A stretch of 38,662 nt of DNA from a virus (lineage: Duplodnaviria > Heunggongvirae > Uroviricota > Caudoviricetes), in IMG/VR virus record IMGVR_UViG_2695420482_000015; one strand, written 5' to 3'. The translations under genes were made by a program, and so were the position numbers. The notes below the pieces were generated by a model that was not told the DNA's origin, ran no database searches, and worked only from the letters and a program-made list of their open reading frames with translations. Positions 1-28,844 of the stretch are shown piece by piece. Position 1 is the first letter of the stretch; the number at the start of each line of letters is the position of its first letter.

Positions 1-1518
1 TCATTCACCCTCCTGATGCGTGGTAGCGGTCCCATTGAAGGGCAAAATAAAATCCCCCAAACAGAAAACAGATTCTTCAGCGACGTAAATAAGCTGACCG
101 TTCAAGCGCAGTGAAACGGGCGCAGAAGTTCGAATCGCAATACGCTGCGCGTCGAGAGTGACCTGTAATTCGCAGCCCTGCCAGAACAGAGGGAAAGACA
201 ACTGTTGCCACTGCTCAGGTAACGCCGGATTGAGATGTAATTCACCGTCACGCACGCTCACCCCGGCAAAACCCTGAATCGCCCCCAGCCAGATAGCGCC
301 AGTTGCGGCAGCGTGGGTACCGTCATCACAGCTATGTGGATCAGCACCAAGATCGATTTCAGTCCCCTCGCGCCAGAACTGATAACTTTGGGTCAGCAGG
401 CCACAGCGTGCGGCAACAATGCCGTGGATTGCTTTACTTAATGACGAGTCGTGAATAGTGCGCGGTTCATAAAATTGCAGATAGGCAAGACACGATGCCG
501 CTGAGAACTGCTCCGGCAGCATGTAATTGAGCATCACCACATCAGCTTGTTTGAGGATCTGCATCTCGTTCACTTCTGCGCGTGAATAATCCAGCAGAAT
601 GGTTTGCTTCCCCGCCGCCGCTTTGTATTTCGCCAGATTAATCACCGGCTTAGCCATAAACGAATCATCCTGCGGCAAAACGCCGTCGGGCTGAATTTCT
701 GGCAGCCGCAGTTCTTTGAGGTACATTTCTGCACGATGAATAAACGCGTCGTCGCTACAGCCAAACTGACGAGCGATATTCAGCGCCTGCTGGACGTTGT
801 AATACGCCATATAGCTGGTGAAGGCGTTATTATTGACATGTTCGGTATATTCGTCTGGCCCAATAACATCATGAATTTCCAGACGGTCGTTAACCCTCAC
901 CGCGCGGCTAATCCAGAACTTTGCCGTCTCCAGAAGTAGCGCCATGCCTTCATGAGCAATGAAACTTTCATCCCCCGTGGTCCGCCAGTATTGAATAACC
1001 GCCCAGGCGATATCGGCCACCAGATGATGTTCCGCCTGCGCAGAGGCCACTTTTTGCCGCAACCCGGTACGAATGTTAATGGCAGCAAATTCCGGCGTCT
1101 CTTCTTCGCCGCTACGCGCGCTTTCCCACGGAAATAGCGCGCCCTGCCAGCCGTTGCGTCGCGCTTTCTCCTGCGCGCCAGGCAAGTTGTGCCAGCGATA
1201 ACGCAGTAAACTTCGGGCAACCATCGGATCGCTAAACAGATGGAACGGTAGCAAAAATACTTCTGTATCCCAGAAAACGTGGCCTTTGTAGCCTTCGCCG
1301 GTTAAACCTTTCGCCGCAATGCTGCTGCGCTCATCGTGGGCAGGCGTCATGATGCGCAGGTGATAAAGCGCATAATCTAACGCTTGCTGATCGTGCGCAT
1401 CGCCGCCGTTTACCGTGATACGACGTTTCTGCCACCATTGACGCCAGTTTTCTGTTGATGCTGCAAGAAGTTGGTCGTAACTCTGCTGCGCGCTGATGCG
1501 CCGCGCGATAAATGCACT
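1..1518 (-). CDS. ycjT: GH65-family glycoside phosphorylase (kojibiose phosphorylase YcjT-like), C-terminal ~505 codons; gene interrupted by prophage insertion
   Basis: ORF 1..1350 translation has GH65 catalytic-domain character (GHVFWDTEVF motif). The same frame stays open upstream to ~1518 with plausible protein sequence, then stops at the prophage junction. N-terminal ~250 codons are absent from the window. Symbol is from memory of the E. coli protein, not a search. Confidence 0.7.
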   Translation of the reverse strand, partial: SAFIARRISAQQSYDQLLAASTENWRQWWQKRRITVNGGDAHDQQALDYALYHLRIMTPAHDERSSIAAKGLTGEGYKGHVFWDTEVFLLPFHLFSDPMVARSLLRYRWHNLPGAQEKARRNGWQGALFPWESARSGEEETPEFAAINIRTGLRQKVASAQAEHHLVADIAWAVIQYWRTTGDESFIAHEGMALLLETAKFWISRAVRVNDRLEIHDVIGPDEYTEHVNNNAFTSYMAYYNVQQALNIARQFGCSDDAFIHRAEMYLKELRLPEIQPDGVLPQDDSFMAKPVINLAKYKAAAGKQTILLDYSRAEVNEMQILKQADVVMLNYMLPEQFSAASCLAYLQFYEPRTIHDSSLSKAIHGIVAARCGLLTQSYQFWREGTEIDLGADPHSCDDGTHAAATGAIWLGAIQGFAGVSVRDGELHLNPALPEQWQQLSFPLFWQGCELQVTLDAQRIAIRTSAPVSLRLNGQLIYVAEESVFCLGDFILPFNGTATTHQEGE

Positions 1519-1571
1519 CTATCTTGTGCGATAAATGGCATCCACGCGGCGTTTCATTATTTGAAAAAGAA

Positions 1572-2144
1572 TTACATTTCAGGTTGCGTTATGACAGTCC
1601 CAACAGGGTGATAGCGGTAGATCGTTGACAGTCCAATATCATAGATAATTGCCAGCCGCTTTCTGTCATACCCTTTCTGGAGCAATCTTGCGATCTGCTC
1701 ATGCTGCTCCTTCGTCAGTTTCGGGCGACGTCCTCCAACTCTTCCTTGTGCTCGCGCAGCAGCCAGTCCAGCCAGCGTGCGCTCAACTATCAGTTCACGC
1801 TCCATTTCTGCCAGTGCACCCATCATATGAAAAAAGAACCTTCCCATCGGAGTGCTGGTATCGATTGAATCCGTCAGACTGCGAAAATTGACACCTTTTG
1901 CGCGTAGCTCTTCTGTGAGAGCAATGAGGTGTTTCATTCTTCTACCCAACCGATCCAGCTTCCAGACCACCAATGTATCCCCTCTTTTAAGGCACTTTAA
2001 AGCGCGTTTCAGGCCTGGTCGTTCCGACTTGGTTCCGCTCATTTTGTCCTCAAAAATCTGTTCACATCCTGCGCACATTAATGCATTGCGTTGCAAATCT
2101 GTGTTTTGGTCATTTGTTGACACACGTATGTAGCCAATCAGCAT
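1572..2144 (-). CDS. gin: Serine DNA invertase (Gin/Hin/Pin family)
   Basis: Translation from internal Met (MLIGYIRVSTNDQNTDLQRNAL...) matches Mu Gin almost residue for residue at the N-terminus, including the catalytic serine context and C-terminal HTH. Lies next to the invertible fibre segment. Confidence 0.95.
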   Translation of the reverse strand: MLIGYIRVSTNDQNTDLQRNALMCAGCEQIFEDKMSGTKSERPGLKRALKCLKRGDTLVVWKLDRLGRRMKHLIALTEELRAKGVNFRSLTDSIDTSTPMGRFFFHMMGALAEMERELIVERTLAGLAAARAQGRVGGRRPKLTKEQHEQIARLLQKGYDRKRLAIIYDIGLSTIYRYHPVGTVITQPEM

Positions 2145-2200
2145 TAAAAATACTCCCTTTTGAGTGGTTAAAGTACTGAGATAATGTGGGGAGGATTTGA

Positions 2201-2224
2201 GAGATAAACGTTGGTTTAGGAGAA
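2201..2224. other. gix/hix-like inversion crossover site (gin-proximal)
   Basis: gagataaacgttggtttaggagaa; its reverse complement ttctcctaaaccaacgtttatctc matches the site at 4174..4199 (shared core ttctccNaaaccaaNgt) and resembles gix/hix half-sites (AAACC..GGTTT). Confidence 0.7.
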
Positions 2225-2713
2225 GCGGCGAAAAGGGATGTGGGCACGACAGTCGGAACCGTTGCCGCTGGTGATGATTTACGCATAATAGGAGCACTTC
2301 AAAAGGCAAATAATCTTTATGAGTTAACAAATAAATCTGACGCAAGAGCTAATCTTGGGTTAGGAACCGTTGCAACAAAAAACGTGGGAAATAGTGCTGG
2401 GCAAATACCTGATATGTCTTACTGGTCTTCCGTATCGGGTGGCGTTAATTTCCCTAATGGATTCCAGATGCGATTCGGTGCTATCGCTGGTAATGGTGGA
2501 AAATTATTTTCTACGCCATTTACAAATCAGTGCTATGGCATTGTTTTCGGACAAACATATGTAGCCAACTACTGGATGTTCAGCCCGATGTACAGAGCAT
2601 CTGATCTGAGTAATACCGGTTTTGCATTCATTAACAAAACCTGGTCTGGCGTTCCGGGGACAGGTGCTCAGGACGCTGGTGAATCAGTTTTTTATATTGC
2701 AGTAGGGTATTAA
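2213..2713 (+). CDS. Alternate tail fibre C-terminal domain (S'v-like, promoterless; expressed only after inversion)
   Basis: Frame is open from the crossover site (…NVGLGEAAKRDVGTTVGT…) with no proper start of its own. Sits inside the invertible segment and is followed by a tail fibre assembly gene. Confidence 0.6.
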   Translation, partial: GLGEAAKRDVGTTVGTVAAGDDLRIIGALQKANNLYELTNKSDARANLGLGTVATKNVGNSAGQIPDMSYWSSVSGGVNFPNGFQMRFGAIAGNGGKLFSTPFTNQCYGIVFGQTYVANYWMFSPMYRASDLSNTGFAFINKTWSGVPGTGAQDAGESVFYIAVGY

Positions 2714-2714
2714 T

Positions 2715-3158
2715 ATGGAAATGGTTTATAGCGCCTCAAATAATAGTTTTTTCGCTAAAAATGATGTGGCGAAATATGAACAGGCCGGATGGGAACTTGC
2801 TGATATTGTCGAAGTGACATATGACACTTACCTGGAATTTATTGAAGACAGAACGTTGCAAGGGAAAGTACGCATCGCGGGTGATGATGGCCTTCCCACC
2901 TGGGGGGAAATTCCACCGCCAACTCATGAGGAACAAATTGCCGCAGCCGAACTGGAAAAGCAGCAATTGATTAATCAGGTCAACGAATACATATACAGTA
3001 AGCAATGGCCTGGTAAAGCAGCGATTGGTCGCCTGAAAGGTGAGGAACTGGCGCAATATAATTTGTGGCTGGATTATCTGGACGCACTGGAACTGGTCGA
3101 TACTTCCGGTGCGCCAGATATTGAATGGCCTACGCCTCCGGCAGTTCAGGCCAGATGA
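2715..3158 (+). CDS. Tail fibre assembly protein (alternate, U'-like)
   Basis: 147 aa; C-terminal motif NLWLDYLDALELVDTSGAPDIEWPTPP is typical of Tfa chaperones and parallels the C-terminus of the 3130..3723 protein. Confidence 0.8.
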   Translation: MEMVYSASNNSFFAKNDVAKYEQAGWELADIVEVTYDTYLEFIEDRTLQGKVRIAGDDGLPTWGEIPPPTHEEQIAAAELEKQQLINQVNEYIYSKQWPGKAAIGRLKGEELAQYNLWLDYLDALELVDTSGAPDIEWPTPPAVQAR

Positions 3159-3723
3159 CGTCCGGCGCTGTGCTGGTATCTGTTGCCGTCACCGCGTCAA
3201 TATAATCCAGCACAGCGTTAAGTCGGGTGTTTTCTGGCTGCGTCAGCTTCCGCCCGGCCTGTAATTTCAGTTGAATCAGACTGATGGAAGCCATTGCAGC
3301 ATCAATCAGCGACTGGCGCTGTGCTTCTGCAGCTTCTACTGCGGCGCTATGCTGTGCCTCGGTATCCGTCACCCATTTCTCACCATCCCATTTATCGTAT
3401 GGCGTTAACGGTGAAAGCGTGACATAACCGTCTTTGATGGCACCGATATAATCCACTGTAACAGCTGCGCCATTTTCAGTTGAGTAAACGGTCTCATTGC
3501 GATGGTCTTCTTCATGGCTCCATCCCTTACCCGTAAATACTGCCACTCTTCCCGGAATGTATTCGCCCGGGTCAATACCAGTGGAACAAACGGGCATACT
3601 TACGCCAGTATTAATATATTCATCAGACCAGCCCGTATATTCAGACGTTACTGCATCATAATAATAACAACGCATATCACCCGGCACTGTAGCCAGCCCA
3701 TTTTCATCAAAAACAGGTTTCAT
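3130..3723 (-). CDS. Tail fibre assembly protein (U-like)
   Basis: 197 aa; C-terminal NAVLDYIDAVTATDTSTAPDVIWPELP Tfa motif; immediately downstream of the fibre gene. Confidence 0.8.
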   Translation of the reverse strand: MKPVFDENGLATVPGDMRCYYYDAVTSEYTGWSDEYINTGVSMPVCSTGIDPGEYIPGRVAVFTGKGWSHEEDHRNETVYSTENGAAVTVDYIGAIKDGYVTLSPLTPYDKWDGEKWVTDTEAQHSAAVEAAEAQRQSLIDAAMASISLIQLKLQAGRKLTQPENTRLNAVLDYIDAVTATDTSTAPDVIWPELPEA

Positions 3724-5177
3724 TATGCAGCCCTCACAATATAATTAAAGGCGATGTTACGTGGACGGTTTTCATTAGCTGTTGGCACGACACGAGAGGC
3801 GTCGAATCCAAGGTCATCGGTTTTGCCTATATCAGTTGTGTTATTCGGCATTCTCGCAGATCGTGTTCCTGCATCATAAAAAGCCCCTCTGATTGCATCA
3901 AAAGACATACCGATCCCGCCATCTGCGAATCCCTCAATATTTCTTATTGCATCCCCCTGTGAAGATAATAATTGTCGCCCGGCATCCACACCACGTCCGT
4001 CATCCCAGCCACGAATAAATTCACCGCGTAAATCCGGCAATTTATTTGTCGGATAAACCTTTGCCAGTTCCGGGTATTCTTCAGCAGAAAAAGCCGCACC
4101 GTTGCATTTCAGCCAGCCAGTAGGCGGTGTGGCTGAAGGCCACGGAACAGGCACACCAACGGGTAATGCCGAACCTTCTCCCAAACCAAGGTAATTGAGG
4201 ACATCTTTTATACTGCCCTTAGCGATAATAGCGCGACCAATAGCTGTAAGGGTTGCCAGCTCTGCGCGGTCTGCTCCGGTAAAATAAGGCAACCGATCTG
4301 CTGCAGTGGCAAGTCCTGCCAGAGCAGTGAGCGTGGCATCTGCCGGTTGTTTTCCGTTTGCCAGATCGTATGCAGCCTTGACCGCTTTCGGTGTGGCGGC
4401 CAGTATTTCAGACGTGCTGTTGATGGCACTGCTCAATTGTACGGTGCCTTTTGCCGTCAGCGAGGCAGCAGGCACTCCCGTTATCTGACTCCACGGGTGA
4501 GTGTGGCTGACGGGCGCCTTGCCGGCTGCAAGGTCGTATGCAGCCTTGACCGCCTTCGGCGTGGCAGCCTCAGTTTCTGATTGACTGTCCGTGGCGCTGC
4601 TCAGTTGTACGGTGCCTTTTGCCGTCAGCGAGGCAGCAGGCACTCCCGTTATCTGACTCCACGGGTGAGTGTGGCTGACGGGCGCCTTGCCGGCTGCAAG
4701 GTCGTATGCAGCCTTGACCGCCTTCGGCGTGGCAGCCTCAGTTTCTGATTGACTGTCCGTGGCGCTGCTCAGTTGTACGGTGCCTTTTGCCGTCAGTGAA
4801 GCCGCAGGCACTCCCGTTATCTGACTCCACGGGTGAGTGTGGCTGGCAGGCGCCTTGCCGGCTGCCAGGTCGTATGCAGCCTTGACCGCTTTTGGTGTGG
4901 CGGCCAGCGTTTCAGAGGTGCTGTTGGTGGCACTGCTCAGTTGGGTGAACCCCTTAGCTGTCAGTGTCGCGTCCGGGTGGTTACGGGAACGTACGTGTTC
5001 AGCCAGTGACTGTGCGGCTTCCTCCGTTTTCTTCTTCAGCCATTTCGTCCTGTTTGCCAGTTGCCGGGGGGCTCGATTTGATATCCCGTCTGCACCACCC
5101 AGAACCGGATCTGATGTCTCCAGTTGATAGATATTTTCTTCCCACTTTTCTGTTTCATTCAGGTTTCCCATAATCAA
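3723..5177 (-). CDS. Tail fibre protein (S/H-like), constant N-terminal part plus invertible C-terminal part
   Basis: 484 aa with four tandem 56-aa fibre repeats (…ATPKAVKAAYDLAAGK…SHTHPWSQITG…). The gix-like site lies within the coding sequence. Confidence 0.9.
   Translation of the reverse strand: MIMGNLNETEKWEENIYQLETSDPVLGGADGISNRAPRQLANRTKWLKKKTEEAAQSLAEHVRSRNHPDATLTAKGFTQLSSATNSTSETLAATPKAVKAAYDLAAGKAPASHTHPWSQITGVPAASLTAKGTVQLSSATDSQSETEAATPKAVKAAYDLAAGKAPVSHTHPWSQITGVPAASLTAKGTVQLSSATDSQSETEAATPKAVKAAYDLAAGKAPVSHTHPWSQITGVPAASLTAKGTVQLSSAINSTSEILAATPKAVKAAYDLANGKQPADATLTALAGLATAADRLPYFTGADRAELATLTAIGRAIIAKGSIKDVLNYLGLGEGSALPVGVPVPWPSATPPTGWLKCNGAAFSAEEYPELAKVYPTNKLPDLRGEFIRGWDDGRGVDAGRQLLSSQGDAIRNIEGFADGGIGMSFDAIRGAFYDAGTRSARMPNNTTDIGKTDDLGFDASRVVPTANENRPRNIAFNYIVRAA
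4174..4199. other. gix/hix-like inversion crossover site (inside tail fibre gene)
   Basis: ccttctcccaaaccaaggtaattgag, in inverted orientation to 2201..2224. Falls on the LGLGE codons of the fibre; the alternate cassette carries VGLGE at its site. Confidence 0.7.
4296..4967. repeat. Tandem 168-bp repeats (about 4 copies) encoding 56-aa tail fibre repeats
   Basis: Near-identical DNA copies with period 168 seen directly (e.g. acggtgccttttgccgtcag at ~4441 and ~4609); flanking copies are more diverged. Confidence 0.8.
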
Positions 5178-5752
5178 CTGCTCCCGTGGTTATAACTGCC
5201 ATCATGGATGGCGGTATTGTTATAGCGAATGGCCACAGACTGATACTCCAGGCTGGCCAGATGGCAGCGGGCCGGTGCAAATGCAGCCAGCGTCTGACGC
5301 AGCATCGCGGCCTGATCGTTAGTAATGGGCTGTTTCAGAATAACGCGATAAACTGCCCAGGCGGCTGCATCTCCATGAACAAACAGTCCGTTATAGCTGC
5401 GATTGCCGTCGTAACTGAGACGACCTGTGCCTTCAATCAGATCCACTTCACCAAAGCCAAAACGGCGGATAACTTCCCGGATTGACCACGGCGTCCCTTT
5501 ATACCGGTGCAGTTCGATGGCTGCTTTTATAAGCATGCGGCGAACATCGTCCGATTCCGCCAGCTCCCAGCCATCGCCAGACAGTGAGAACTGCTCGCCC
5601 AGCCATGGCAGCGCGGAACTGTCGACGATATCGACGAGAAAGACCATCAGTACGCTCAGGTCGATGTTATCCAGCCGTCCTGCCAGTCTTCCCAGCGTCC
5701 TGAGACTGATATCACCCTCAAGCGGTGGCGGGAGTTGTAATGGCTCAGTCAT
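5174..5752 (-). CDS. Tail protein, P2 gpI-like
   Basis: 192 aa; position after baseplate J-like gene and before fibre; sequence character of gpI family. Confidence 0.7.
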   Translation of the reverse strand: MTEPLQLPPPLEGDISLRTLGRLAGRLDNIDLSVLMVFLVDIVDSSALPWLGEQFSLSGDGWELAESDDVRRMLIKAAIELHRYKGTPWSIREVIRRFGFGEVDLIEGTGRLSYDGNRSYNGLFVHGDAAAWAVYRVILKQPITNDQAAMLRQTLAAFAPARCHLASLEYQSVAIRYNNTAIHDGSYNHGSS

Positions 5753-6848
5753 CAGACACTCCAGTCATGTTAAGAGTGATTGCCGTACAGTTTGCCCATT
5801 CGTTTTCTGCCACCACCCGCAGTGCCGGTGTCACCAGTTCAACCTGGTACACCCCGGAAACGGACAATGCACTGATAATCTGGCTGGGGACAATATCGCG
5901 CCCCAGCGTGGCGGCACGTGATGCCACCCAGTTCTGTATGGCGCTGTTAGCGGCATCTTTTACAGACCTGGCATCCTGATCACGATAGATCGTAATCCTG
6001 GCTTCAATGGTGTAATCCACCTTCACTGGTGTTTTAGCCCGCACTGTATCAGTGAGTGGCCTGACTTTCTCATCAGAGCAGAAACTCTCTACCAGCGTGA
6101 GAACACCGCCGTCCGGCAGACCGGTACTGAGCAGCGGATACAGATCTACGGTCCCGGGAACCGGGGAAAGCACAGCAACATCGACAATGTTGGGATGGGC
6201 CTGCATGGCATGAAAGCGGTATGCGCCACGGCTTCCGGCATTGGTGAATGACTCCGGGGCCAGCCTGATACGCTCCCGGAGCCTGTCATCGTCTTCCTGT
6301 TCTGAACCGCCGGAACTGGCCGTCAGATTGCTCACCAGCAGGTCGACGTTATCAATCTCATCGAGTAACTGACTGACCTGCGCAGGTTGCCAGCCGTTAC
6401 CAGCGGTACCGGGTTCGGTACAGGTGGACGTGACATTGACCAGCAGCAATCCGGCCTTCAGTACCACATCTGTATCGGTGGCAAAAATAACGCTGTCGGA
6501 AGCGCTGACGCGGGTGCCTGCCGGGATCAGCACATCAATGGCCAGTGCCTCATCTACGGAGAACTGGAGCGTGGTAGTGGCAGGCTGCGCGGCAAGACGG
6601 TATACACCGACCAGTTCACCGAGGTAATCAATCATCGGCTCACGGGCAAAGGCGACCAGATTCTGCTTTGCTGCCTCCTGTACCGCAACCCTGACCAGCA
6701 TTTCGCGATAGGCCCACAGATCAATCAGCAGACGTTCTGCCTGTGCCGGGTACAGCGTTTTGCCGGTATCCGCTTCATACTTCGCAATCATTTCTGCCGT
6801 GATTTTGTCGGCATCGCGTTCAATAAAATCGGGTTCTGTCAGCGCCAT
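5745..6848 (-). CDS. Baseplate protein, P2 gpJ-like
   Basis: 367 aa; baseplate J-like sequence and synteny (W-J-I-H). Confidence 0.8.
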   Translation of the reverse strand: MALTEPDFIERDADKITAEMIAKYEADTGKTLYPAQAERLLIDLWAYREMLVRVAVQEAAKQNLVAFAREPMIDYLGELVGVYRLAAQPATTTLQFSVDEALAIDVLIPAGTRVSASDSVIFATDTDVVLKAGLLLVNVTSTCTEPGTAGNGWQPAQVSQLLDEIDNVDLLVSNLTASSGGSEQEDDDRLRERIRLAPESFTNAGSRGAYRFHAMQAHPNIVDVAVLSPVPGTVDLYPLLSTGLPDGGVLTLVESFCSDEKVRPLTDTVRAKTPVKVDYTIEARITIYRDQDARSVKDAANSAIQNWVASRAATLGRDIVPSQIISALSVSGVYQVELVTPALRVVAENEWANCTAITLNMTGVSDD

Positions 6849-7186
6849 AGCAGCTCCTGAGTCCGGGTCTGTCCGTCTGAGCCTTTCCAGCTCACCCGGA
6901 GCGTAAGATGTTCGCCGTCGACGGCGGGTTTAACTGACATAAGCTGGCAGCGGGGCTCCCAGCGCCGGATGGCATCGACGGATTCGCGCACCACATGCGG
7001 AATGGCCCGGTCTACAGGCCAGTCGATATAAAGATGCAGATTGCTGCCGAACTCCGGGCGATGCGGGTCGCTGCCGCGGGGAGTCCGCAGGATAATTTGA
7101 ATCGCCTGCCGGATATCATCCAGCCCCCGGACAATTTCGCCGGGAGCCTGCAGGGTCGGTTGCCAGAATACTGAGGTTGTTTTCAT
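6839..7186 (-). CDS. Baseplate wedge protein, gpW/gp25-like
   Basis: 115 aa; size and sequence typical of GPW/gp25; synteny. Confidence 0.75.
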   Translation of the reverse strand: MKTTSVFWQPTLQAPGEIVRGLDDIRQAIQIILRTPRGSDPHRPEFGSNLHLYIDWPVDRAIPHVVRESVDAIRRWEPRCQLMSVKPAVDGEHLTLRVSWKGSDGQTRTQELLWR

Positions 7187-7240
7187 GGGGGCAGTATTGC
7201 CCCCGTGCGGGAACGCTGATATTAAAGGCGTTTAAAAAGC

Positions 7241-7837
7241 TCAGTGGGAGTGGTGGCTGGAGTTTTCGCCATCAGACAACATACTGCCCGTGGCATGGGC
7301 ATTCCCTTTAATCTCGATATTGCCATGGATGGTCGCGGTAACACCTTCACCACCAGAACCCGCCATGCCTCCTTCGTAAATCAGCTTACCCCTGACACGC
7401 AGATCTCCGGTAAGTTCGGTTTCCGGTGCGTCAATCGTGGCTTTCTGTGTTTTCAATACCACATCAGCACCACACTCAATGACAATATGCTCAATGCCGC
7501 CCCGGATGGTCAGAGTGTGCGTCTTCCGGTTGTAGCTGTACTCTGCACCATCAGCAAACCGGGTTCCCCGGATATTTTTGTCACTGAACGGTGGTTTATC
7601 GACGTCTGAATACACCGCGCCCAGAATAACACCATCCTCGCCGTTGGCATCGAGCAGCACCTCAACCTGCTCCCCCACGTCAGGGAGCCAGTAATCTTTG
7701 TTATCCTGGGTATTGCGCTGCAGCACGTTAAGCCAGTTTGTGCGCAGGTTATCGCATTCAGGCAGACGAACGCGGGCCTGAACCCTGTCGGCATCAACGG
7801 CACTGACCGTACCGACCTGACGAGTGACACCAGTCAT
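7241..7837 (-). CDS. Baseplate assembly/spike protein, P2 gpV-like
   Basis: 198 aa; gpV-like N-terminal OB region and glycine-rich C-terminus; synteny. Confidence 0.75.
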   Translation of the reverse strand: MTGVTRQVGTVSAVDADRVQARVRLPECDNLRTNWLNVLQRNTQDNKDYWLPDVGEQVEVLLDANGEDGVILGAVYSDVDKPPFSDKNIRGTRFADGAEYSYNRKTHTLTIRGGIEHIVIECGADVVLKTQKATIDAPETELTGDLRVRGKLIYEGGMAGSGGEGVTATIHGNIEIKGNAHATGSMLSDGENSSHHSH

Positions 7838-8988
7838 TTTTTCTTCTCCTTAATCACCGTCGATGTACTGCCATCCGGGTGATAAACCGTGAGTTTCTGA
7901 GTTTTTTGTTTTTTCCCTCTTGTGACTGGCCCCCGTGCCACTTCCAGCTCTGTGGTGTAGCCGCTGTTACGGTCAAACGCATGGCGGGCAGTGGTTATGA
8001 GCCATGGCCCGGATAACTGCCCAAAACCCACCAGTTCAATTTTGTTGCCTGCTGTCAGTTGAGGTGTTCCCGTCAGCGTCAGGGAGCCGTTCTGCTGGTA
8101 TTCGTTATGTCTGGCCAGTGCTGAATCCGCTTTAATCCGGGCACTGTCCGGGTCGCTGACGCGGCTGTTAACTTTAAGTGAGTCAGCGCTGGTAACCTTA
8201 CCACCTTTGAGCTTTTTGTCGCTTTCACGGGTACCACCATCAGCTTCGTAGACGATCAGTTTTTTACTGCTGCTTTTCTGGTGTTTTACCTTTGCAGATT
8301 TATAGACCCGGTTGATGGTGTCACGCAGGGAAAAGCGGGCCACATCCTGCGGTTTTAACTGCCTGACCGGCTCCTGACTGCGCAGTGTGGCCAGATGAGA
8401 AAAAATCAGCTGGTCACTGACCACTTTCACTGCATAACCATACTCGCTGGCCAGCCGGCGCAGAAAACCCACGTCGGTTTCAGCATACTGGGTCACCCGG
8501 TCGATTCTGATGGACTCAATGCTGCCCACCAGTTTCAGTCGGTGCTTTCTGGCAATCCGCCCCGCAACAGCTGCCAGCGTGGTGTTCTCAAAACCACGAC
8601 TGGTTTTAGTCCGCAGGGCACTGTTAACCGAGGTGGCCACCCCACGGATAGAAACAACGGAAGCGGGCGAACTCACTTCGATCTCGTCTATAGAGAACGT
8701 ACCGCAGGACAGCAGCTTCTCGCCCTGATAGCCCATTTTCAGCGTCAGCGTGTCACCCTTGCCCGGATACCATTTATCCAGCCAGCGGCCATCGGTGTCG
8801 TCCAGCTCCACCTCAATGGTATCGGACTCATTTTTGATGTTATCGCTCCAGGTCACACGGGTGACATAAGGCGCGATATCAGAGGTGATGTTTTTCTGCA
8901 GATACCACAAAGTGAACACCGGTGTCAGCACATCGCTGACGCCGGTTAACGCTGATGTGACTTGCGCAGTGCTGTTTATCTCAGCCAT
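7834..8988 (-). CDS. Baseplate hub, late control gene D protein-like (Mu P / P2 gpD)
   Basis: 384 aa; gpD-family character; follows the gpX-like gene. Confidence 0.8.
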   Translation of the reverse strand: MAEINSTAQVTSALTGVSDVLTPVFTLWYLQKNITSDIAPYVTRVTWSDNIKNESDTIEVELDDTDGRWLDKWYPGKGDTLTLKMGYQGEKLLSCGTFSIDEIEVSSPASVVSIRGVATSVNSALRTKTSRGFENTTLAAVAGRIARKHRLKLVGSIESIRIDRVTQYAETDVGFLRRLASEYGYAVKVVSDQLIFSHLATLRSQEPVRQLKPQDVARFSLRDTINRVYKSAKVKHQKSSSKKLIVYEADGGTRESDKKLKGGKVTSADSLKVNSRVSDPDSARIKADSALARHNEYQQNGSLTLTGTPQLTAGNKIELVGFGQLSGPWLITTARHAFDRNSGYTTELEVARGPVTRGKKQKTQKLTVYHPDGSTSTVIKEKKK

Positions 8989-9191
8989 GGGGCAATATCC
9001 TCTTCTGTACGGGCTTCTTCAGCCTCAATCACCGGGATCAGTAACAACAGCCCGGAGGGCAGCACCGGCGTGATGGCCACGTGCGGATTGGCGGCAATAA
9101 TCCGGGGATAGCCCAGCGGGTCACCGTAGTACTGCCATGCCAGCGAATCCCAGCGCTCTCCGTCACGGGTAACATGTTCAAGAAACATCAC
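8976..9191 (-). CDS. Tail protein X-like (LysM-like)
   Basis: 71 aa (…WDSLAWQYYGDP…); small gpX-like protein between gpU-like and gpD-like genes. Confidence 0.7.
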   Translation of the reverse strand: MMFLEHVTRDGERWDSLAWQYYGDPLGYPRIIAANPHVAITPVLPSGLLLLIPVIEAEEARTEEDIAPWLR

Positions 9192-10072
9192 ACACTCCTC
9201 GTCAGTATTCTGGCGGCCATTGCACTTAATCCCGGAGACATGCGGTTGAATGCTGTGCCGGCGGCGTTAAGCTGCCCGGAAACGGTATCCAGAGCACCTG
9301 CAATATTTCTTTTGTCCACACCACTCAGCGCAGACTGTGCCTGCTGTACATACGTGGCTGCTTCGCTGGCTGTTCTGGCCAGACTGATGGCATCGGGCAT
9401 GGATTCAGAGAGTGCGTTAAACGCCGGAACACTTTTCCCCAGAGCCCCGGAGATATTACCCAGTCCGCTCATCAGCCCCGGCACACGGGTCAGTGCGACA
9501 ACGGGGTTATCCTTCATTTTCTGTGTCACCCGAACGGCGCTGATAGTGGTCTGGAGTACAGACTGCGCCTGTTTCGCATAGTTGACGCCGTTGCGGATGA
9601 ACTGCGCCACCCCTGAAGGTGAAGGTATGGCACCGGAGACCGCCCCGACACCCGGGAGCTTCGTGCGTATTGCCGGTGGTTGCAGAGGATTTTTCGGGTC
9701 ACCGGTGTATTCCCGGAGAGACACGGTGGCACTGACAGCCAGCACGTTGCCGGTACTGTCAGTCTGCTCGCTGGTTGCAGTCACATCGGTAATCACGAAC
9801 CAGCCGCGATAGTCACCGTTGCCGAAGACCAGCGCCAGTGCCTGATGGGCTTTCATGGCTGTTCGCAGTCTCGCCAGCTCCACATCGGGTACACAATAAT
9901 GCTGATGGAAAACCAGAGTTATCTGGATTTCGTCCAGCCTGTCGCCGACGAACTGCAGGCCAGGCTTACCCCCGATGCGGGCATGCTCCGCATAATCGAC
10001 GCCGAACGTGGCCTCGAAGCCGTCCCAGTAGGTAATCAGCTCAAACTCAATATCACCCAGTACGGCAAACAT
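9188..10072 (-). CDS. Tail protein, P2 gpU-like N-terminus with C-terminal extension
   Basis: 294 aa; N-terminus MFAVLGDIEFELIT… resembles gpU-family tail proteins; immediately downstream of tape measure. Confidence 0.65.
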   Translation of the reverse strand: MFAVLGDIEFELITYWDGFEATFGVDYAEHARIGGKPGLQFVGDRLDEIQITLVFHQHYCVPDVELARLRTAMKAHQALALVFGNGDYRGWFVITDVTATSEQTDSTGNVLAVSATVSLREYTGDPKNPLQPPAIRTKLPGVGAVSGAIPSPSGVAQFIRNGVNYAKQAQSVLQTTISAVRVTQKMKDNPVVALTRVPGLMSGLGNISGALGKSVPAFNALSESMPDAISLARTASEAATYVQQAQSALSGVDKRNIAGALDTVSGQLNAAGTAFNRMSPGLSAMAARILTRSV

Positions 10073-12762
10073 CAGCGGTACTCCTTACGTTGTTTCTGAG
10101 CCAGCAGACGCTCCAGCATTTTTTCCAGCTCATGCAGACTCATATTCAGGGCACCAGTCAGTCCTGCAGGCGCTGTGGTTTCCCTGCCATTGAGGAAAAA
10201 CTGAGGATTAAAGCTGACCTGGATACCACCAGACGTTCCACCGCTGGTTGCAGCTGCACCACGGCCTGAATATCCGGCAGCCAGGATTTCAGGCGAGGGG
10301 ATACGGGGAACATCCGGTGTCATCTCATTTGCCAGACGTTGCCCTGGTAAAATCGATGCCCGGGTGGAGAGCGGAATAGCGGGCATGGAAGACAAACTAT
10401 TGATTACGGCTCCGATCGCATTTTTAGCAGACGACATAAACCCATTGATATCGGGCAACGGCATACTGAAGCGAACACCTGAAGTGTTATCCCGTATTTC
10501 TGGCCCCTGGATGCTCACGGGCATTCTGGGGAGCAGTTCACTGGCCATTCGCTGCCCGGCCAGAGCTGCAAGCGGAGTGGTCCGCTGCAGGCCAATGGCG
10601 GCCCCCTGCGCGATATTGTCACCAAAGCCCATAAACACGCGGCTCGGCGAATGAATGCCCAGCTTTTCGCTGAACCAGCCACTGATGCTGTCACCCATTC
10701 CGGTTACACTGGATTTGAGCGACTCCCATTTGTTTTTGATACCGTTAATCAGACCATCGACAAGATGGCCACCGAAGTCGGTAAACTTTGCCGGCAGATC
10801 AACACCAAGATATTTCAGCGCAGCTGCAAAGGCTTTATAGAGCAGGCCTGCCGGCGACCAGTTAATCAGTAACTTACCAATTCCCACAATGCCGCCGTTA
10901 AAGGCTTCCTGAATGTCTGCCCAGCGCTGTTTAAACCAGCCACTGACTGCCCCCCAGTTGCGGTAGATAAGGTAAGCTGCTGCCGCGACAGCGGTGATAA
11001 CGAGACCGATGGGATTCATCATCAGCGCACGTCCAATCCAGAGAACAGCACGTCCGGCGAGCATAATTCCGCGAACCAGCCCCTCGGAGAGCACGCCACT
11101 CAGTGTTCTGGCTCCTCTGGCGACGGCGCTAAATCCGGTCACCAGCCAGCGGAGCTTACCGCCTTGCCCCAGTGCGAGCGACAGACGAAGCCAGTTGGCC
11201 CGAAGTAAAACAGCATTTTTCCAGACACTTACAAAGGGGGAAATAAGGAGATTCAGCCCCAGTTTGAGACCAACAGTCGCTATCTTAATCGCAAGGAGCG
11301 CACTGATGAGCTTAAAAGCCCCACTGACAAATTGCGGGTGAGTCGCTACCCAGTGTTTTGCCCCCTGAATGAGTGGAAGCAGTTCCTGAGTCAAAGAAAT
11401 AAAAGATGGAGCTAATTGATCGCCCAGCGTAATTGCCAGATCGCGACTGCTGACCATAAGTGTTTTAGTGGCTTCAAGGGGAGATTTCAGCCGCTGATCA
11501 TAAGCACTGGCAAGCAAATCGTTATCCGCAGCCCTGAGAGCACCGGCACGGATCTCTCGATATCTGTCCATGTTGGCCAGCATCGGGCGGATAAATGCCA
11601 TGACCTGCATATCCGCGAACATATCGCCCAGACCAAAGTTTTTCGCCAGAGCCTGAAGTGCCTCATCTCTTGCCGTATCATTCTTTATTTTCATGGCTGA
11701 TTTGAAGCCGGCCAGCGCTTCGGGGCTTTTGGCATTGAGGTAACGTTCTATAACACTCAACATCCCTTCAATCGGAGAGATCCCCGCAGCTTTATAACTC
11801 GCAATAGATCCCTGCAAATCAATACCCAGATCAGCAAACTGTTTCTGAGTATCGCGGGCAAAAATTTTGGTAAGAAAGTTTTTAAAATTATTGGCTGCTT
11901 CGTCGGTGGAACCTGCACCGATTTTTGCTATCTGGAGACTGGCCCCGATTTCAGCAACAGCCTCTTTTCCACTGGCAATACCCGCCATCATTGGGGCCAG
12001 GGACTGCATCCACTTGACCTGATCCGGGATTTCAAATGACCCCTGGTCACCGGCATAAGCCATAATATTCTGAACGGCACCAAAATCTCTGGCCGCACCT
12101 TTCAGGGAGTTTTGCCAGACTGCGGCCACTTTTGCCCAGTCCTGAGCAGACGTGCGTGTTGCCGTTGCCGCGCGGGCAATATCCGGCATCAGAAAACCGA
12201 TATCTGACACATTATCAATATTGTCGCTGATGAGTGAACCCACCGCCTCCTGCAGCTCATCCTGATACTGATTGTATTTAAGCGCCCAGCCTTTTATCTG
12301 TCCGGCAAGTCCATCCCGCGTTTTATTGTCATATTTTGCGGTGATCGACATATCAATCATTTTGTCCTGAAAAGACATGGACTGCTGAACGGCAGGGGAA
12401 ACCGTATGATAAACAGTCTGTGCCATGCCATACGCTTCAATCCCCTGACCATACAGCGCCATGCGGTTAGCTTTCAGCGCATCACTGGTAGCGGATGCCG
12501 CTGACAGACGGCGCTGCTGGCGCTCAATTTGCTCCATGGTGCGGCTTACCCGCAGCAGCTCGCTGTTGAGATGCTGCATCCGGGAAGAACCCAGTTGACC
12601 ATAACGTTCTGTTGCACGGGTTAAAGCGTTCTGACGTTCCTGCAGGCGGCGTGAGGTATCGCTCAGGGAATCAAGCGCACGGCGGGTACCGCTCATTGCA
12701 GAACGGAATGTGCTACCAATCATCCCGCCGATAACAACGCCGACTGAAAACTGTCCCGACAT
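10072..12762 (-). CDS. Tail tape measure protein
   Basis: 896 aa, helical/coiled-coil rich with hydrophobic central segments; follows the tail chaperone pair. Confidence 0.9.
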   Translation of the reverse strand: MSGQFSVGVVIGGMIGSTFRSAMSGTRRALDSLSDTSRRLQERQNALTRATERYGQLGSSRMQHLNSELLRVSRTMEQIERQQRRLSAASATSDALKANRMALYGQGIEAYGMAQTVYHTVSPAVQQSMSFQDKMIDMSITAKYDNKTRDGLAGQIKGWALKYNQYQDELQEAVGSLISDNIDNVSDIGFLMPDIARAATATRTSAQDWAKVAAVWQNSLKGAARDFGAVQNIMAYAGDQGSFEIPDQVKWMQSLAPMMAGIASGKEAVAEIGASLQIAKIGAGSTDEAANNFKNFLTKIFARDTQKQFADLGIDLQGSIASYKAAGISPIEGMLSVIERYLNAKSPEALAGFKSAMKIKNDTARDEALQALAKNFGLGDMFADMQVMAFIRPMLANMDRYREIRAGALRAADNDLLASAYDQRLKSPLEATKTLMVSSRDLAITLGDQLAPSFISLTQELLPLIQGAKHWVATHPQFVSGAFKLISALLAIKIATVGLKLGLNLLISPFVSVWKNAVLLRANWLRLSLALGQGGKLRWLVTGFSAVARGARTLSGVLSEGLVRGIMLAGRAVLWIGRALMMNPIGLVITAVAAAAYLIYRNWGAVSGWFKQRWADIQEAFNGGIVGIGKLLINWSPAGLLYKAFAAALKYLGVDLPAKFTDFGGHLVDGLINGIKNKWESLKSSVTGMGDSISGWFSEKLGIHSPSRVFMGFGDNIAQGAAIGLQRTTPLAALAGQRMASELLPRMPVSIQGPEIRDNTSGVRFSMPLPDINGFMSSAKNAIGAVINSLSSMPAIPLSTRASILPGQRLANEMTPDVPRIPSPEILAAGYSGRGAAATSGGTSGGIQVSFNPQFFLNGRETTAPAGLTGALNMSLHELEKMLERLLAQKQRKEYR

Positions 12763-12837
12763 AGTGGTTAACCTCCGGGGAAGGTGAAAAGACGTGAGGG
12801 GATAACGCAGAACAGCCGCTACTGGCGGCTGTCTGTA

Positions 12838-13095
12838 CTATGATTTGTCGCCGTACTCGCTTTTTATTTGCTCTTCAGCCTGCTCCAGCCACATCTCCAG
12901 ATCGTCAGTATCGAGGGCATCAATCTCCCCCGGCTGAAACCGGAACCATCTCGCCAGCAGCCCCTGCGCCTGCGTCAGCGCCCTGGTTGCTCTCACCCAT
13001 CCCCGTGATGAGCTGAAATCGTTTCTGTAACTGCAGGTAATCAGCCAGATCCATATTGTCGAGATCTTCCGGGAGAAGACCAGTACTGCGGGCAA
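12838..13095 (-). CDS. Tail assembly chaperone frameshift extension (GT-like C-terminal domain)
   Basis: 85-aa ORF overlapping the chaperone 3' half in the +1 (equivalently -2) frame, with acidic C-terminus ending 75 nt before the tape measure start; matches the conserved chaperone frameshift arrangement. Confidence 0.55.
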   Translation of the reverse strand: MPAVLVFSRKISTIWIWLITCSYRNDFSSSRGWVRATRALTQAQGLLARWFRFQPGEIDALDTDDLEMWLEQAEEQIKSEYGDKS

Positions 13096-13255
13096 TCAGC
13101 GGTTCGTCCCAGTCTGCCGGGTTTTTGCTGATTTTGCGCACCTGCTTCAGGTCTTTTACCGTCAGGCGTTTCAGTTCAACCTGCTCAATTCTGGTGCCTG
13201 CAGCAGTGGTGAAGGGATAAGACAATTTAAAAGTATCGGATGGGGTCTGTGACAT
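12920..13255 (-). CDS. Tail assembly chaperone (G-like), upstream frame
   Basis: 111 aa ORF between tail tube and tape measure; overlaps a second ORF in another frame. Confidence 0.7.
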   Translation of the reverse strand: MSQTPSDTFKLSYPFTTAAGTRIEQVELKRLTVKDLKQVRKISKNPADWDEPLIARSTGLLPEDLDNMDLADYLQLQKRFQLITGMGESNQGADAGAGAAGEMVPVSAGGD

Positions 13256-13314
13256 GATTGTGCTCCTGTGTAAGTTCAGGGCAGTATGTCGGGAGAAGCG
13301 CGTGACGGATATTA

Positions 13315-13346
13315 AAGGAGATTAAGAAGAAGGGGCCGGAGCCCCT
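13315..13346 (-). terminator. Putative intrinsic terminator after the 93-aa gene
   Basis: GC stem aggggc-cgga-gcccct followed on the minus strand by TTCTTCTT, directly after the stop at 13353. Confidence 0.4.
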
Positions 13347-13352
13347 GTGATG

Positions 13353-13634
13353 TCAGCAAGTGCGAAACCCCTTGCAGTTACGCAGGAAAGCGATGAGAAG
13401 CGTCTTTCCCTCAGATTTGCCGGTGCCGGAGAACCAGTGGTCGGGAGGCTCCCATGCTTCAATCAAATCCGCCAGTTTGCGGGCCTTTGAACGTGTGCAG
13501 TCAATCGGGTCATTGGTTTTACGGGTATTAAAAAGGGTTTCCACCCCCGGAATATCAAGGAGGGTAAACCACGTACCATTTGACATGCCCAGTGCCGCAC
13601 ATCGTCCTCCTTTATCCGTCAGTTCAACACTCAC
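13353..13634 (-). CDS. Hypothetical small Cys-containing protein (possible moron) between tail tube and chaperone
   Basis: 93 aa ORF, no recognisable family; followed by a terminator-like hairpin. Confidence 0.45.
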   Translation of the reverse strand: MSVELTDKGGRCAALGMSNGTWFTLLDIPGVETLFNTRKTNDPIDCTRSKARKLADLIEAWEPPDHWFSGTGKSEGKTLLIAFLRNCKGFRTC

Positions 13635-13636
13635 CG

Positions 13637-14158
13637 TCAGCCCCCGATATTGATACGGTAGTCAGTCAGTTGATCAACACCGCCGACCCGGAAGATGTTG
13701 GCCAGATAGTCCAGTTGCAGCAGCTCTTCACCATCCAGTACCTGTCTGATATACGTGCAGGTGAAGCTACTGGAGAACTCGGCGTTCTCGTGCTGTTTGA
13801 ACGTCCCCAGCGGGTTCTTCTTGAACATAATCGTCAGGAAGGTGACCAGCGGGATTTCGTCAATCAGCCCCTGCGAGCTGTAGCGCTGGACGCTGGAACG
13901 ACACTGCAGTGCCAGCGACCTGTACGGGTTCGCGGCAGACAGCATCGCATCGCGGTAAAAGCTGTTCCATTTGATTTCGCCTTCCAGTTTGTCAAAACCA
14001 GCCGGGAGTTCCACCTTACCCACCATCCCCAGCGCCTTGTGTTCCTGCATAATCATGGAGACATCGGGGAGTTTAACTTCCTCAGCCCGTCCCAGCAGGT
14101 TAGTACCATCCAGATAGATGTTGGCATTCGTGATGCGGTTTATCTCAATCTTTGACAT
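13637..14158 (-). CDS. Tail tube protein (Mu M-like)
   Basis: 173 aa; directly downstream of the sheath gene; contractile-tail tube size and sequence. Confidence 0.85.
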   Translation of the reverse strand: MSKIEINRITNANIYLDGTNLLGRAEEVKLPDVSMIMQEHKALGMVGKVELPAGFDKLEGEIKWNSFYRDAMLSAANPYRSLALQCRSSVQRYSSQGLIDEIPLVTFLTIMFKKNPLGTFKQHENAEFSSSFTCTYIRQVLDGEELLQLDYLANIFRVGGVDQLTDYRINIGG

Positions 14159-15585
14159 CAGTTGCCCCCTTTCAGGGTTAACAGGTATTCCGAGGTGATC
14201 TCAGTCTCAAACGTCAGTCGCTCCAGCGGCGGTGGTGGCGTATATTTGTAGCTCAGCAACAGGTGCCCGGCGGCCAGCTCCGTCTCCGGATTGCGGGCCG
14301 GATCAAACCAGCAACGGAAGCCCAGTACCGCACCATCACCAGTCATTTTGCGACCGTAGGCGTTGACCGACTCCGTCAGTGCATCAATCAGCGCCTGAGT
14401 AATCGGCATGTCGATGTACTGCTGGCTGAAATAACGAATGGACTCGTTGATCACATCACCGGTGCGGCGAACGTTCTCAAAGTTACGCATATGGGTGACC
14501 GTTGGCCATGCTGCCGTCCGGTTACCCCACAGACGAAGGCCGCTGCCGTAACTGCTGAATACCGTGGTGATCCCCTGTTCGTTAAGCAGGTTCACCTCAC
14601 TCTGCGGGTCATCAATCATCGCGGACAGCTGGCGCTCCACGCCGGTGATCCCCAGAATCTCCTGATTGGAGGATGACCACCAGTAGCCCTTGTCCAGATC
14701 GACTCTGGCACGCAGACCTGCTGCACGCTGGCTGAGCGGCTCCAGACGCTCTGTGTTTGTCACCGGGTCATATACCTTCACATGCGGATAGCACAGACGG
14801 ACGCGGTCGGAGCTGGTATTGAAGTTGATGGTGCCTTCCGGGCCACGACCTGCCAGAGCCTGTGCAAAGGTGGTACCGACAGGCGCATCAATGTAGGTTA
14901 CCGCGCCCAGCTTCTCTGCCATGGCGATAAGCTCAACTGCGACACTCTTCTGGGTGCAGAACACCGGCGCAATCAGAATTTTGGCGAAATAGCCGTACAG
15001 GTTGAAGCTGTCGTTAAGCAGCTTCATGCCGGTTCGGTTTCCGGCGCTGTTCACCCCGCCGATGATGTCCGCCGCAGTCACCTTCGACGGGTCCGCGTAC
15101 TCATAGCTCACCTTCACGCTGCCACCGGCCTCAATAGCCTTGCCCAGGTTCGTGAGCACACCCGCCTGCGCATCAACACGGTAGTCCGTGTTCGCCGTGT
15201 GGGAGGTGCTGCCTTCACTGTTTTTCACCACCACATTAGCGACAACCGGATGCGCCAGTCTGGCCTGCCCTGTCGATTTGTCAAAGGTAACCACCTCATC
15301 CTCGATCGCCGTTTTATGTTTCGCCGGGTCGAGGACGTTAATGACCAGAACGGTACCTGCACCATGGTCATAAATCGCATCCAGCGCCTGCGGAATGGTA
15401 AAGCCGGTGAACTGGCTGCCAAATGCCGCTGCGTCTTTCTCAGACAGGCACTGTACCAGCGTATTGACATCCCCCATCGGGGCGGTACCAATCAGGCCAA
15501 TAACGGCAGATTTCACCGTTTTAACCGGGCGGGCACCGTTTTCCACCTCAATGGTTTCGGGACCATGCAGATAGTTAGCTGCCAT
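14158..15585 (-). CDS. Tail sheath protein (Mu L-like)
   Basis: 475 aa; sheath-family sequence; synteny. Confidence 0.9.
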   Translation of the reverse strand: MAANYLHGPETIEVENGARPVKTVKSAVIGLIGTAPMGDVNTLVQCLSEKDAAAFGSQFTGFTIPQALDAIYDHGAGTVLVINVLDPAKHKTAIEDEVVTFDKSTGQARLAHPVVANVVVKNSEGSTSHTANTDYRVDAQAGVLTNLGKAIEAGGSVKVSYEYADPSKVTAADIIGGVNSAGNRTGMKLLNDSFNLYGYFAKILIAPVFCTQKSVAVELIAMAEKLGAVTYIDAPVGTTFAQALAGRGPEGTINFNTSSDRVRLCYPHVKVYDPVTNTERLEPLSQRAAGLRARVDLDKGYWWSSSNQEILGITGVERQLSAMIDDPQSEVNLLNEQGITTVFSSYGSGLRLWGNRTAAWPTVTHMRNFENVRRTGDVINESIRYFSQQYIDMPITQALIDALTESVNAYGRKMTGDGAVLGFRCWFDPARNPETELAAGHLLLSYKYTPPPPLERLTFETEITSEYLLTLKGGN

Positions 15586-15829
15586 GGGTGTCCTCCGTTT
15601 TCACTTCGCTGTCACTGCTGCTTCTGCGCTTTGGTGACTGCACAGCCGGTGTGCCGGCGGGTTTAGTCTCTTCAGGTACCGGCGTCAGATGTTTCAGCGC
15701 CACCAGTACCTTCACGTAGTCATGCTCCTCCGGCAGGGAAACCGTCTTCCCCGGCCAGAGCAGGATTTCGGTTCCGTCCGACAGCGTGACGCCGCTGGCC
15801 GGGCCGGAATAGCGGTATTCTTTCATCAC
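15575..15829 (-). CDS. Mu gp38-like small protein
   Basis: 84 aa; conserved position between head-completion genes and sheath. Confidence 0.55.
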   Translation of the reverse strand: MMKEYRYSGPASGVTLSDGTEILLWPGKTVSLPEEHDYVKVLVALKHLTPVPEETKPAGTPAVQSPKRRSSSDSEVKTEDTHGS

Positions 15830-16290
15830 TCGCTTTCCTCATAGTTCACTTCGGTTAACAGCGGGCCGGACGGTAAATCGCTGTCTTCGATAAAGACGCT
15901 TTCAGTCGCGAAGTCGAGGGCGTACTGCCACAGCCCCCTGACTTCACCGATAAACACCTCGCGGGTCAGCCAGATACGGCGGCGGCAGCCGGGCGGGGTG
16001 TGGCCACCGAGAATGCGGCGGACAGCATCCAGGACATTAATCGCCCCTTTTTTACCGTTGAGCTGGCGGAAGACCACCGTGACGCAGAGCTGGATAGTCT
16101 GAGACTGGATCACCGCACCGGTATCATCCGGCCTGTCAAAGCGCGAACCGGCATAGCTCAACAGCAACGCGCCAACCGGATGGTTCAGGCGATATTCAGC
16201 CGGTTTCTCCGGGAAGTACTCCACCTGCAGTTGCGGCAGCTTCTCGCGTAACCGGGCCAGTACCGCATCAAGGACGGGCAGAACGTTCAT
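15826..16290 (-). CDS. Mu gp37-like head-tail connector/completion protein
   Basis: 154 aa; synteny with Mu gp36-38 block. Confidence 0.6.
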   Translation of the reverse strand: MNVLPVLDAVLARLREKLPQLQVEYFPEKPAEYRLNHPVGALLLSYAGSRFDRPDDTGAVIQSQTIQLCVTVVFRQLNGKKGAINVLDAVRRILGGHTPPGCRRRIWLTREVFIGEVRGLWQYALDFATESVFIEDSDLPSGPLLTEVNYEESE

Positions 16291-16736
16291 CAGTATTTCT
16301 CCAGTAAACCGTCACGACCGCCGAAAGTGGCCGGGCGACTGCGTACACGAAACTCGCCAGGCTCAGGCACATCTTTCTGAGTGGACGGCAGCCCCAGCGT
16401 GAGCCTGTTATCACGTAACTCCCTGAGTTGCCGCAGCGCTTCTTTGTGGTCATCCTTTACCGTATCCGGGAGGTCACCTTCCGGGCGGCGGGCGTAGAGC
16501 CGGTAACGGACCAGCGTGATGGCAATGTCCCGCAGAACAGTCGGTATCTCTGCCAGTGGCAGGATATAGCGTCCGCGCAGATGGGCATCAATCAGCTCGT
16601 CGGCATAGCGGATACAGCTGTCCACCACACGGGTATTCACTGTTGCAGGCGAGTCGAAGTCCATCTCTTCACTGGTGAGCTCGATAAGCGTCCGCTCCGG
16701 CACCTGCGCAAGCAAATCCTCCAGGGTGCAGTACAT
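16290..16736 (-). CDS. Mu gp36-like protein
   Basis: Start chosen at internal Met (MYCTLEDLL…) to abut the upstream gene; 148 aa. Confidence 0.6.
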   Translation of the reverse strand: MYCTLEDLLAQVPERTLIELTSEEMDFDSPATVNTRVVDSCIRYADELIDAHLRGRYILPLAEIPTVLRDIAITLVRYRLYARRPEGDLPDTVKDDHKEALRQLRELRDNRLTLGLPSTQKDVPEPGEFRVRSRPATFGGRDGLLEKY

Positions 16737-16737
16737 G

Positions 16738-17076: not shown

Positions 17077-17085
17077 AACGCCTCC

Positions 17086-18039: not shown

Positions 18040-18053
18040 GCTCTCTCCTTAAA

Positions 18054-19842: not shown

Positions 19843-19844
19843 TG

Positions 19845-26629: not shown

Positions 26630-26743
26630 GTGTGTCTCCTCGTTTGGTGGAGACAGCATCACAAATGTGGCGGGATACGGATTTTAAACAGCGTTAATAG
26701 TGAAGATGTAAACGTGCACTGCATGATGACTTTGAAAGAACGA

Positions 26744-28842: not shown

Positions 28843-28844
28843 GA

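Follow-up and report, generated by a model that had tools for sequence, protein, structure and literature searches.

Positions 1494-1571 of the window, by which we mean the whole 38,662-nucleotide stretch of DNA that was analyzed, are very probably the right (late-gene, gin-proximal) end of a transposable prophage of about 37 kb that belongs to the BcepMu/B3 group, is inserted in the E. coli gene ycjT and would move by the full mechanism set out below. A prophage right terminus near gin had been proposed in an original prediction for this DNA and is upheld here, with gin (1572-2144) lying directly inside the gin-proximal end of a transposable prophage. The same prediction called the end Mu-type, which is correct insofar as the element is a transposable prophage whose end is of the TG...CA type, and incorrect as to lineage, the phage belonging to the BcepMu/B3 group and having an rve/Tn552-like transposase without MuA domains.

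The host/phage junction

Positions 1-1493 are the 3′ part of the host gene ycjT (kojibiose phosphorylase, minus strand), identified by alignment to E. coli genomes and to an uninterrupted allele (L001), which also showed that the prophage insertion interrupts the gene after nt 775 of 2268. Compared with thousands of complete E. coli genomes this part was 95-99.9% identical, and all alignments ended at 1493. In pairwise alignment the uninterrupted allele was perfectly identical to the window through 1493 and not at all beyond, where the host reads ACATTTCAAGC and the window reads TGATGCGCCGCG. From the phage side, TGATGCGCCGCGCGATAAATGCAC was found beside 14 different flanks in E. coli chromosomes and IMG/VR contigs, and in 14/14 the common sequence, which starts TGATGCGCC, began at the TG that is window position 1494. 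Because 14 unrelated flanks all abut the same start, the phage terminus is at 1494 (5′-TGATGCGCCGCGCGATAAATG...) and the host/phage junction is 1493/1494, with prophage sequence running from 1494 to the last base of the window. The terminal TG at 1494-1495, which on the minus strand forms the CA-3′ of the right phage end and opens with the first base common to the 14 insertions, would be the point of cleavage and strand transfer. Between this terminus and the gin stop at 1572 there are 78 non-coding bp, more than the roughly 55 bp originally estimated. Insertions of the same phage lay at unrelated sites, 14 different sequences flanking the right end and 21 the left, with the phage at up to 4 places per genome, and insertion at many unrelated sites is transposition, not site-specific integration.

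The junction had originally been drawn at about 1513-1518, with the phage ending in ...AGAGTGCA, the TGCA at 1513-1516 taken as its terminus and the first of two decamers spanning the junction. This placement arose because the ycjT frame closes at 1519-1521, and the frame is indeed open to 1518 and then stops as had been stated; it remains open for 25 nt within the phage end by chance. There is next to no probability that the phage ends at this position. The uninterrupted ycjT diverges at 1494, and the ends of BcepMu and B3 align from the TG at 1494. Moreover, 1494-1518 is identical next to 14 unrelated flanks and is therefore phage sequence. The earlier junction was misplaced by about 20-25 bp, and alignment with the empty site, which had itself been proposed as the way to fix the coordinate, put the junction at 1493/1494. 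The expectation of a TG...CA end was right in kind and wrong in position, as the genuine terminal dinucleotide is TG at 1494-1495 and the TGCA is internal to the phage end; with the terminus at 1494, the first decamer lies 11 nt inside the end instead of across the junction.

Repeated cores and the two phage ends

The 38.6-kb window contains exactly two copies of the decamer GCGATAAATG, one at 1505-1514 and the other 23 nt further on at 1528-1537, just as first noticed. Only 0.04 exact matches were expected and two or more copies occurred in 0/100 shuffles. The two decamers are thus not chance, which removes coincidence from the two explanations originally offered for them and leaves transposase binding as the most likely one. 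Since the terminus is at 1494, both belong to the phage end, where they occupy nt 12-21 and 35-44 respectively. They form two repeat units on the plus strand, at 1494-1516 and 1517-1539, each with a core GCGATAAAT(G), the first in the register common to other ends and the second corresponding to core 2 of relatives. A third conserved and putatively functional element, GTTTCA (1551-1556, plus strand), continues the 23-24-nt phase of cores 1 and 2 without resembling either. The terminal 12-mer has a 10/12 inverted copy (1494-1505 / 1545-1556) that includes GTTTCA. A promoter and terminator scan of 1400-2400 detected nothing in the phage end.

In the E. coli phage the core consensus of the right end was G[C/A]GATAAAT at nt 12-20 and 35-43. 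Read inward, the right and left ends had TGAT and GATAAATG in common (15/21 of the first nucleotides), with the second core at nt 35-43 in both. All six ends compared, i.e. right and left of the E. coli phage, BcepMu and B3, began with TG, and those of BcepMu and B3 aligned gap-free with those of the E. coli phage at the TG (nt 1-2), the first core (12-20) and the second core (34/35-43), giving a six-end core of G[C/A]GA[T/A]A[A/T][A/T]N. Across genera, right ends had GCGC[C/G]GCGCGA in common and left ends AGA..TGAGA, and the two ends are therefore differentiated in a conserved manner. When core 1 of the right end served as a degenerate search pattern, 82 distinct right ends were found, 69 of which had core 2 starting at nt 34/35, compared with 0 in the control window, and 58 of these 69 also had TT[T/G]C 23-24 nt inward of the core 2 start. 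The 11 distinct left ends (TnpA 66-100% identical), which were themselves matches to a two-core search pattern, all kept both cores while nt 21-32 varied freely. Over about 90 metagenomic ends together with those of the E. coli phage, BcepMu and B3, the cores were conserved and the inter-core spacer was variable, and the decamer motif was tied to the terminus also in phages without gin; a gix or sis role for the decamers was set aside. Since the blocks sit at a fixed distance from the terminus, the spacers are free and the neighboring gene is irrelevant, the pattern is that of protein-binding sites of a transposition end. Judged from sequence, the repeated cores are conserved terminal repeats and most likely transposase-binding sites.

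A further repeat was seen in the left end of one relative (L004 37560-37610, nt 44-72 from the terminus), where ATGGGAAGA occurs twice as a direct repeat, 20 nt apart, just inside core 2. TGGGA is found at the same position in divergent left ends and is absent from right ends, and the TGGGA/ATGGGAAGA repeat may be a left-end-specific site.

The window ends at the Mor stop codon and the left end is predicted about 161-163 bp past it, as the distance from the Mor stop to the left end ...TCAAGTCTAATCA is 163 bp in one relative (L002) and 161 bp in another (L004). In relatives the left end reads ...TGTCATTTATCTCAAGTCTAATCA, ends ...AATCA and abuts 21 different flanks, among which each of the four bases is represented at the first position. 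Both cores recur there in the register of the right end, so that comparison with the far end, also proposed originally, revealed the same repeat in relatives, the prophage's own far end being outside the window. Exact 6-bp target duplications were present at 5 independent insertions (GAAGAA, GATAGC, GTGACG, ATGTGC and CCTGTT); for GTGACG (L015) lengths of 5 and 7 were excluded, and the empty aroA-ycaL site of K-12 has one GAAGAA where the JJ1886 insertion has two. A 5-bp duplication with a left end of ...AATCAG was considered, as the first three left junctions had G after AATCA, and was rejected, since the 21 left flanks show all four bases and paired junctions fit 6 bp only. By extension from relatives, GCGCGC at 1488-1493 is the predicted right-hand copy of the target-site duplication in ycjT, and the insertion is predicted to read ...TGTCATTTATCTCAAGTCTAATCA-GCGCGC-ACATTTCAAGCTGACG about 37.3 kb from 1494. 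Searches with the right junction and the predicted left junction gave no match to the ycjT insertion in genome contigs or metagenome contigs; no complete E. coli genome spans the ycjT junction, which was also absent among IMG/VR matches. Because the window includes neither the left end nor the second GCGCGC and none of the collections searched contains the insertion, the intactness of the ycjT copy, i.e. the presence of its left end, is assumed.

Gene content and related phages

On the minus strand, reading inward from the terminus, are gin, an invertible tail-fibre segment, P2-like baseplate and tail genes, Mu-like head genes and lysis genes, after which come variable cargo and a repressor, and then on the plus strand a Ner-like gene, DUF3102, the transposase, an AAA+ ATPase, Gam, GemA and Mor. 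The last gene before the right end (1572-2144, minus strand) encodes a gin-type serine DNA invertase of 190 aa with Pfam Resolvase and HTH_7, whose homologue is annotated as a recombinase in relatives. The transposase TnpA (31874-33643, plus strand, 589 aa, rve/DDE) had Pfam rve only; its identity was 98.8% with the transposase of Escherichia phage PhiKM, 68.5% with BcepMu TnpA and 56.8% with B3 TnpA. Directly downstream is the AAA+ transposition ATPase TnpB (33654-34820, plus strand, Pfam AAA_22 and AAA_16), the functional counterpart of MuB, with counterparts in JJ1886, BcepMu and B3 annotated as ExeA family protein or DNA transposition protein. The last gene before the left end is a Mor-family activator (38273-38662, plus strand, Pfam Mor). 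The early operon is thus inverted, with late genes and gin on the minus strand and tnpA, tnpB and Mor on the plus strand, and the same layout is annotated in the full-length copies of JJ1886 and strain 025542-1 and in BcepMu and B3. Nothing similar to com or mom was found between gin and the terminus, in agreement with the original prediction. About 600 complete E. coli records, ST131 strains included, contain the right end with gin at an identity of at least 99%, and the prophage is widespread in E. coli.

Several other features of the window were observed. Within the 3′ end of gin there is a 9-nt direct repeat, TGACAGTCC, at 1592-1600 and 1626-1634, 34 nt apart, which is probably chance. The invertible tail-fibre segment (2170-3723) adjoins gin and holds alternative tail-fibre C-termini and assembly genes (2240-2713 and 2715-3158 on the plus strand, 3130-3723 on the minus strand), and the constant part of the tail fibre (3723-5177, minus strand) has three internal repeats of about 240 bp. 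The variable cargo region at 26700-29900, between holin and repressor, encodes a D12-class Dam-type methyltransferase (26877-27647, plus strand), a 401-aa ORF with only a weak PADLOC match to KwaA (27637-28842, minus strand) and an NA37/YejK-like nucleoid-associated protein (28845-29852, minus strand). Relatives have other genes at this position, e.g. an "ABC transporter ATPase" or an IS66 insertion, and the region may be a defence or moron locus.

Among described phages, Burkholderia phage BcepMu (Bcepmuvirus), whose TnpA is more similar than that of B3, has the same arrangement as the window, with a Mor...tnpB-tnpA left arm transcribed outward followed by repressor, lysis, head and P2-like tail genes. 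Its ends start with TGA and have cores at nt 12-20 and 35-43, in the register seen here, and nucleotide similarity to the window is limited to these end cores. BcepMu differs in its host, which for the phage of the window is E. coli, and in having an acyltransferase at the right end where the window has the gin invertase and invertible tail-fibre segment; because the latter occupy the right end of the prophage, the terminus is only 78 bp beyond gin. BcepMu relatives have been described with TG...CA termini and an rve transposase (PMC2628397). Pseudomonas phage B3 (Beetrevirus) likewise has an inverted early operon, TG-CA ends and cores in register with those of the window, apart from core 2 of its right end, which is shifted by 1 nt. 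B3 is nevertheless a siphovirus with unrelated tail genes, and the middle of its late region holds a Com-like gene together with a methylase. An inverted early operon and transposition proteins unlike those of Mu have been reported for B3-like phages (PMC5977238). B3-type phages have further been described with TG-CA ends and with a 6-bp duplication that is attributed to a B3/Tn552-family transposase (PMC8705779, PMC5977238), so that the duplication length reported for B3 is the one observed in relatives of the window phage. The likeness to Tn552, which has an rve transposase with an AAA+ partner but is a small transposon and not a phage, is one of annotation and literature naming: the BcepMu record annotates TnpA as "Tn552/IS1604 rve transposase", and the "B3/Tn552 family transposase" has been associated with a 6-bp scar (PMC8705779).

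Closest of all is Escherichia phage PhiKM (PQ738613), essentially the same phage, with 98.9% identity over 86% of the query 1494-20000. The prophage of JJ1886 (ST131) is 100% identical to the window over the right end and gin and is inserted at aroA-ycaL rather than in ycjT. Both PhiKM and JJ1886 differ from the window in the cargo between lysis genes and repressor and in the variable parts of the tail fibre. Klebsiella phage KP12 clone 3 was rejected as a relative of the end, as its match is a P2-like region with a related invertase.

Solo right ends were also observed outside full-length prophages. P1-like phage-plasmids carry one (L048 3966-4754, NZ_CP117014.1 plasmid p95_MLI121; also L036, L039, L040 and L042), in which a cin-like invertase gene breaks off after its first 11-12 codons and passes straight into TGATGCGCCGCGCGATAAATG..., followed by the phage gin (same accession, WP_000904922.1) and the invertible segment, joined to the plasmid tail-fibre gene. 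This looks like insertion into cin and then deletion between the two invertible segments, with gin replacing cin. Another solo right end lies inside a tail gene of a lambdoid prophage (L003 1001-3000, NZ_CP024278.1, ATCC 43896), where a truncated copy of the phage consists of the right end, gin and part of the invertible segment, followed by an IS66-family element.

Relation to Mu and proposed transposition

Several features could suggest that the window holds a true Mu (Muvirus) attR with MuA sites R1 and R2, in a variant that has lost com and mom. The first 24 nt of the right end match Mu attR at 17 positions with the same TG terminus (permutation p ~1e-4), and Mu R2 and the window end both contain CGATAAATG. 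In Mu attR (MuA sites R1, R2 and R3) as in the window, phased sites are separated by about two helical turns and a third element lies more internally, and in both phages gin and an invertible segment, here of tail-fibre genes, adjoin the end. It is nonetheless highly improbable that this is a Mu end. There is no MuA: TnpA had no detectable similarity to MuA (BLASTP E 0.47), Mu was absent among tblastn matches of the transposase, and the four Mu-specific Pfam domains DDE_2, HTH_Tnp_Mu_1, HTH_Tnp_Mu_2 and Mu-transpos_C, all in MuA, occurred in none of the TnpA proteins of the window, BcepMu or B3. The target duplication is 5 bp in Mu and was 6 bp in 5/5 paired junctions of the window phage, and the early and late genes of Mu all run in one direction, whereas the early operon here is inverted with Mor at the far end. 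The element is not Mu because its transposase family, duplication length and gene order all depart from those of Mu. In Mu, com and mom fill about 0.9 kb between gin and attR, in contrast to the 78 non-coding bp of the window, and their absence needs no special explanation because BcepMu and B3 also lack mom at the right end, where cargo in the group varies (acyltransferase in BcepMu, the small ORF58 in B3, gin in the window). The attR-like terminal sequence is real but is not proof of Mu membership. The resemblance of right ends in the BcepMu/B3 group to attR exceeds chance expectation and might, in a reading that as a whole we consider doubtful, reflect shared ancestry or an exchange of end sequences between lineages, or a constraint on the terminal ~20 bp from a DDE active-site feature or a shared host factor; the two lineages both live in E. 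coli and share gin cassettes, and the DNA-binding domains of their transposases differ.

Even with the end assigned to a BcepMu/B3-type phage, the conserved repeats could serve some other protein or process, such as a host bending protein, a repressor or Ner-like regulator, packaging or termination of the gin transcript. Transposase binding is itself a prediction, the cores are A/T-rich and the region is just downstream of gin. Yet at both ends the spacing between cores and terminal TG is constant, the adjacent genes differ completely (gin, the BcepMu acyltransferase, B3 ORF58, and Mor at every left end), no terminator-like structure was found, and direct repeats that are inverted between the two ends are the standard arrangement of transposase sites, all of which makes another role quite improbable. 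Somewhat less improbable, though still unlikely, is that the ycjT copy is a fossil, a rearranged or solo right end that no longer transposes. Such a fate is consistent with the solo right ends of this phage in P1-like plasmids and a lambdoid prophage and with a left end that falls outside the window. Against it, full-length relatives and the window align collinearly between 1494 and the Mor stop except in variable segments, with 95-100% identity in aligned blocks, those relatives include one with both ends and the duplication (L004), and tnpA, tnpB and the late genes are full-length ORFs.

For a transposing BcepMu/B3-type prophage, TnpA would most likely bind the phased sites at both ends and, together with TnpB, pair the ends. 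On the minus strand a nick would be made between 1493 and 1494, adjoining the terminal CA-3′, and the AAA+ partner TnpB would deliver target DNA, to which the 3′ ends would be joined at phosphates 6 bp apart. Gap replication or repair would then produce the 6-bp duplication, predicted to be GCGCGC in ycjT. These steps are drawn by analogy from the established DDE chemistry of the class that includes Mu, Tn552 and retroviral integrase, and we infer both the binding of the repeats by TnpA and the cleavage site. In the literature searched, which did not extend to the original BcepMu and B3 papers, no TnpA binding or footprint data were found for the BcepMu/B3 group.

Much of this is already known for the family, whose TG-CA ends and 6-bp duplications are published and for which a near-identical phage genome (PhiKM) is deposited; what is new is the refined description of the end only, with no new biology implied. 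For annotation, the prophage boundary is fixed at 1493/1494, ycjT is disrupted after nt 775 and the element is assigned to the BcepMu/B3-type transposable phages rather than to Mu variants. The case also illustrates that a junction inferred from closure of the host frame can err by tens of bases. The end can be summed up as a TG, two cores (nt 12-20 and nt 35-43) and a third element near nt 58-63, a compact signature usable for delimiting prophages of this kind, which are common in E. coli, ST131 included.
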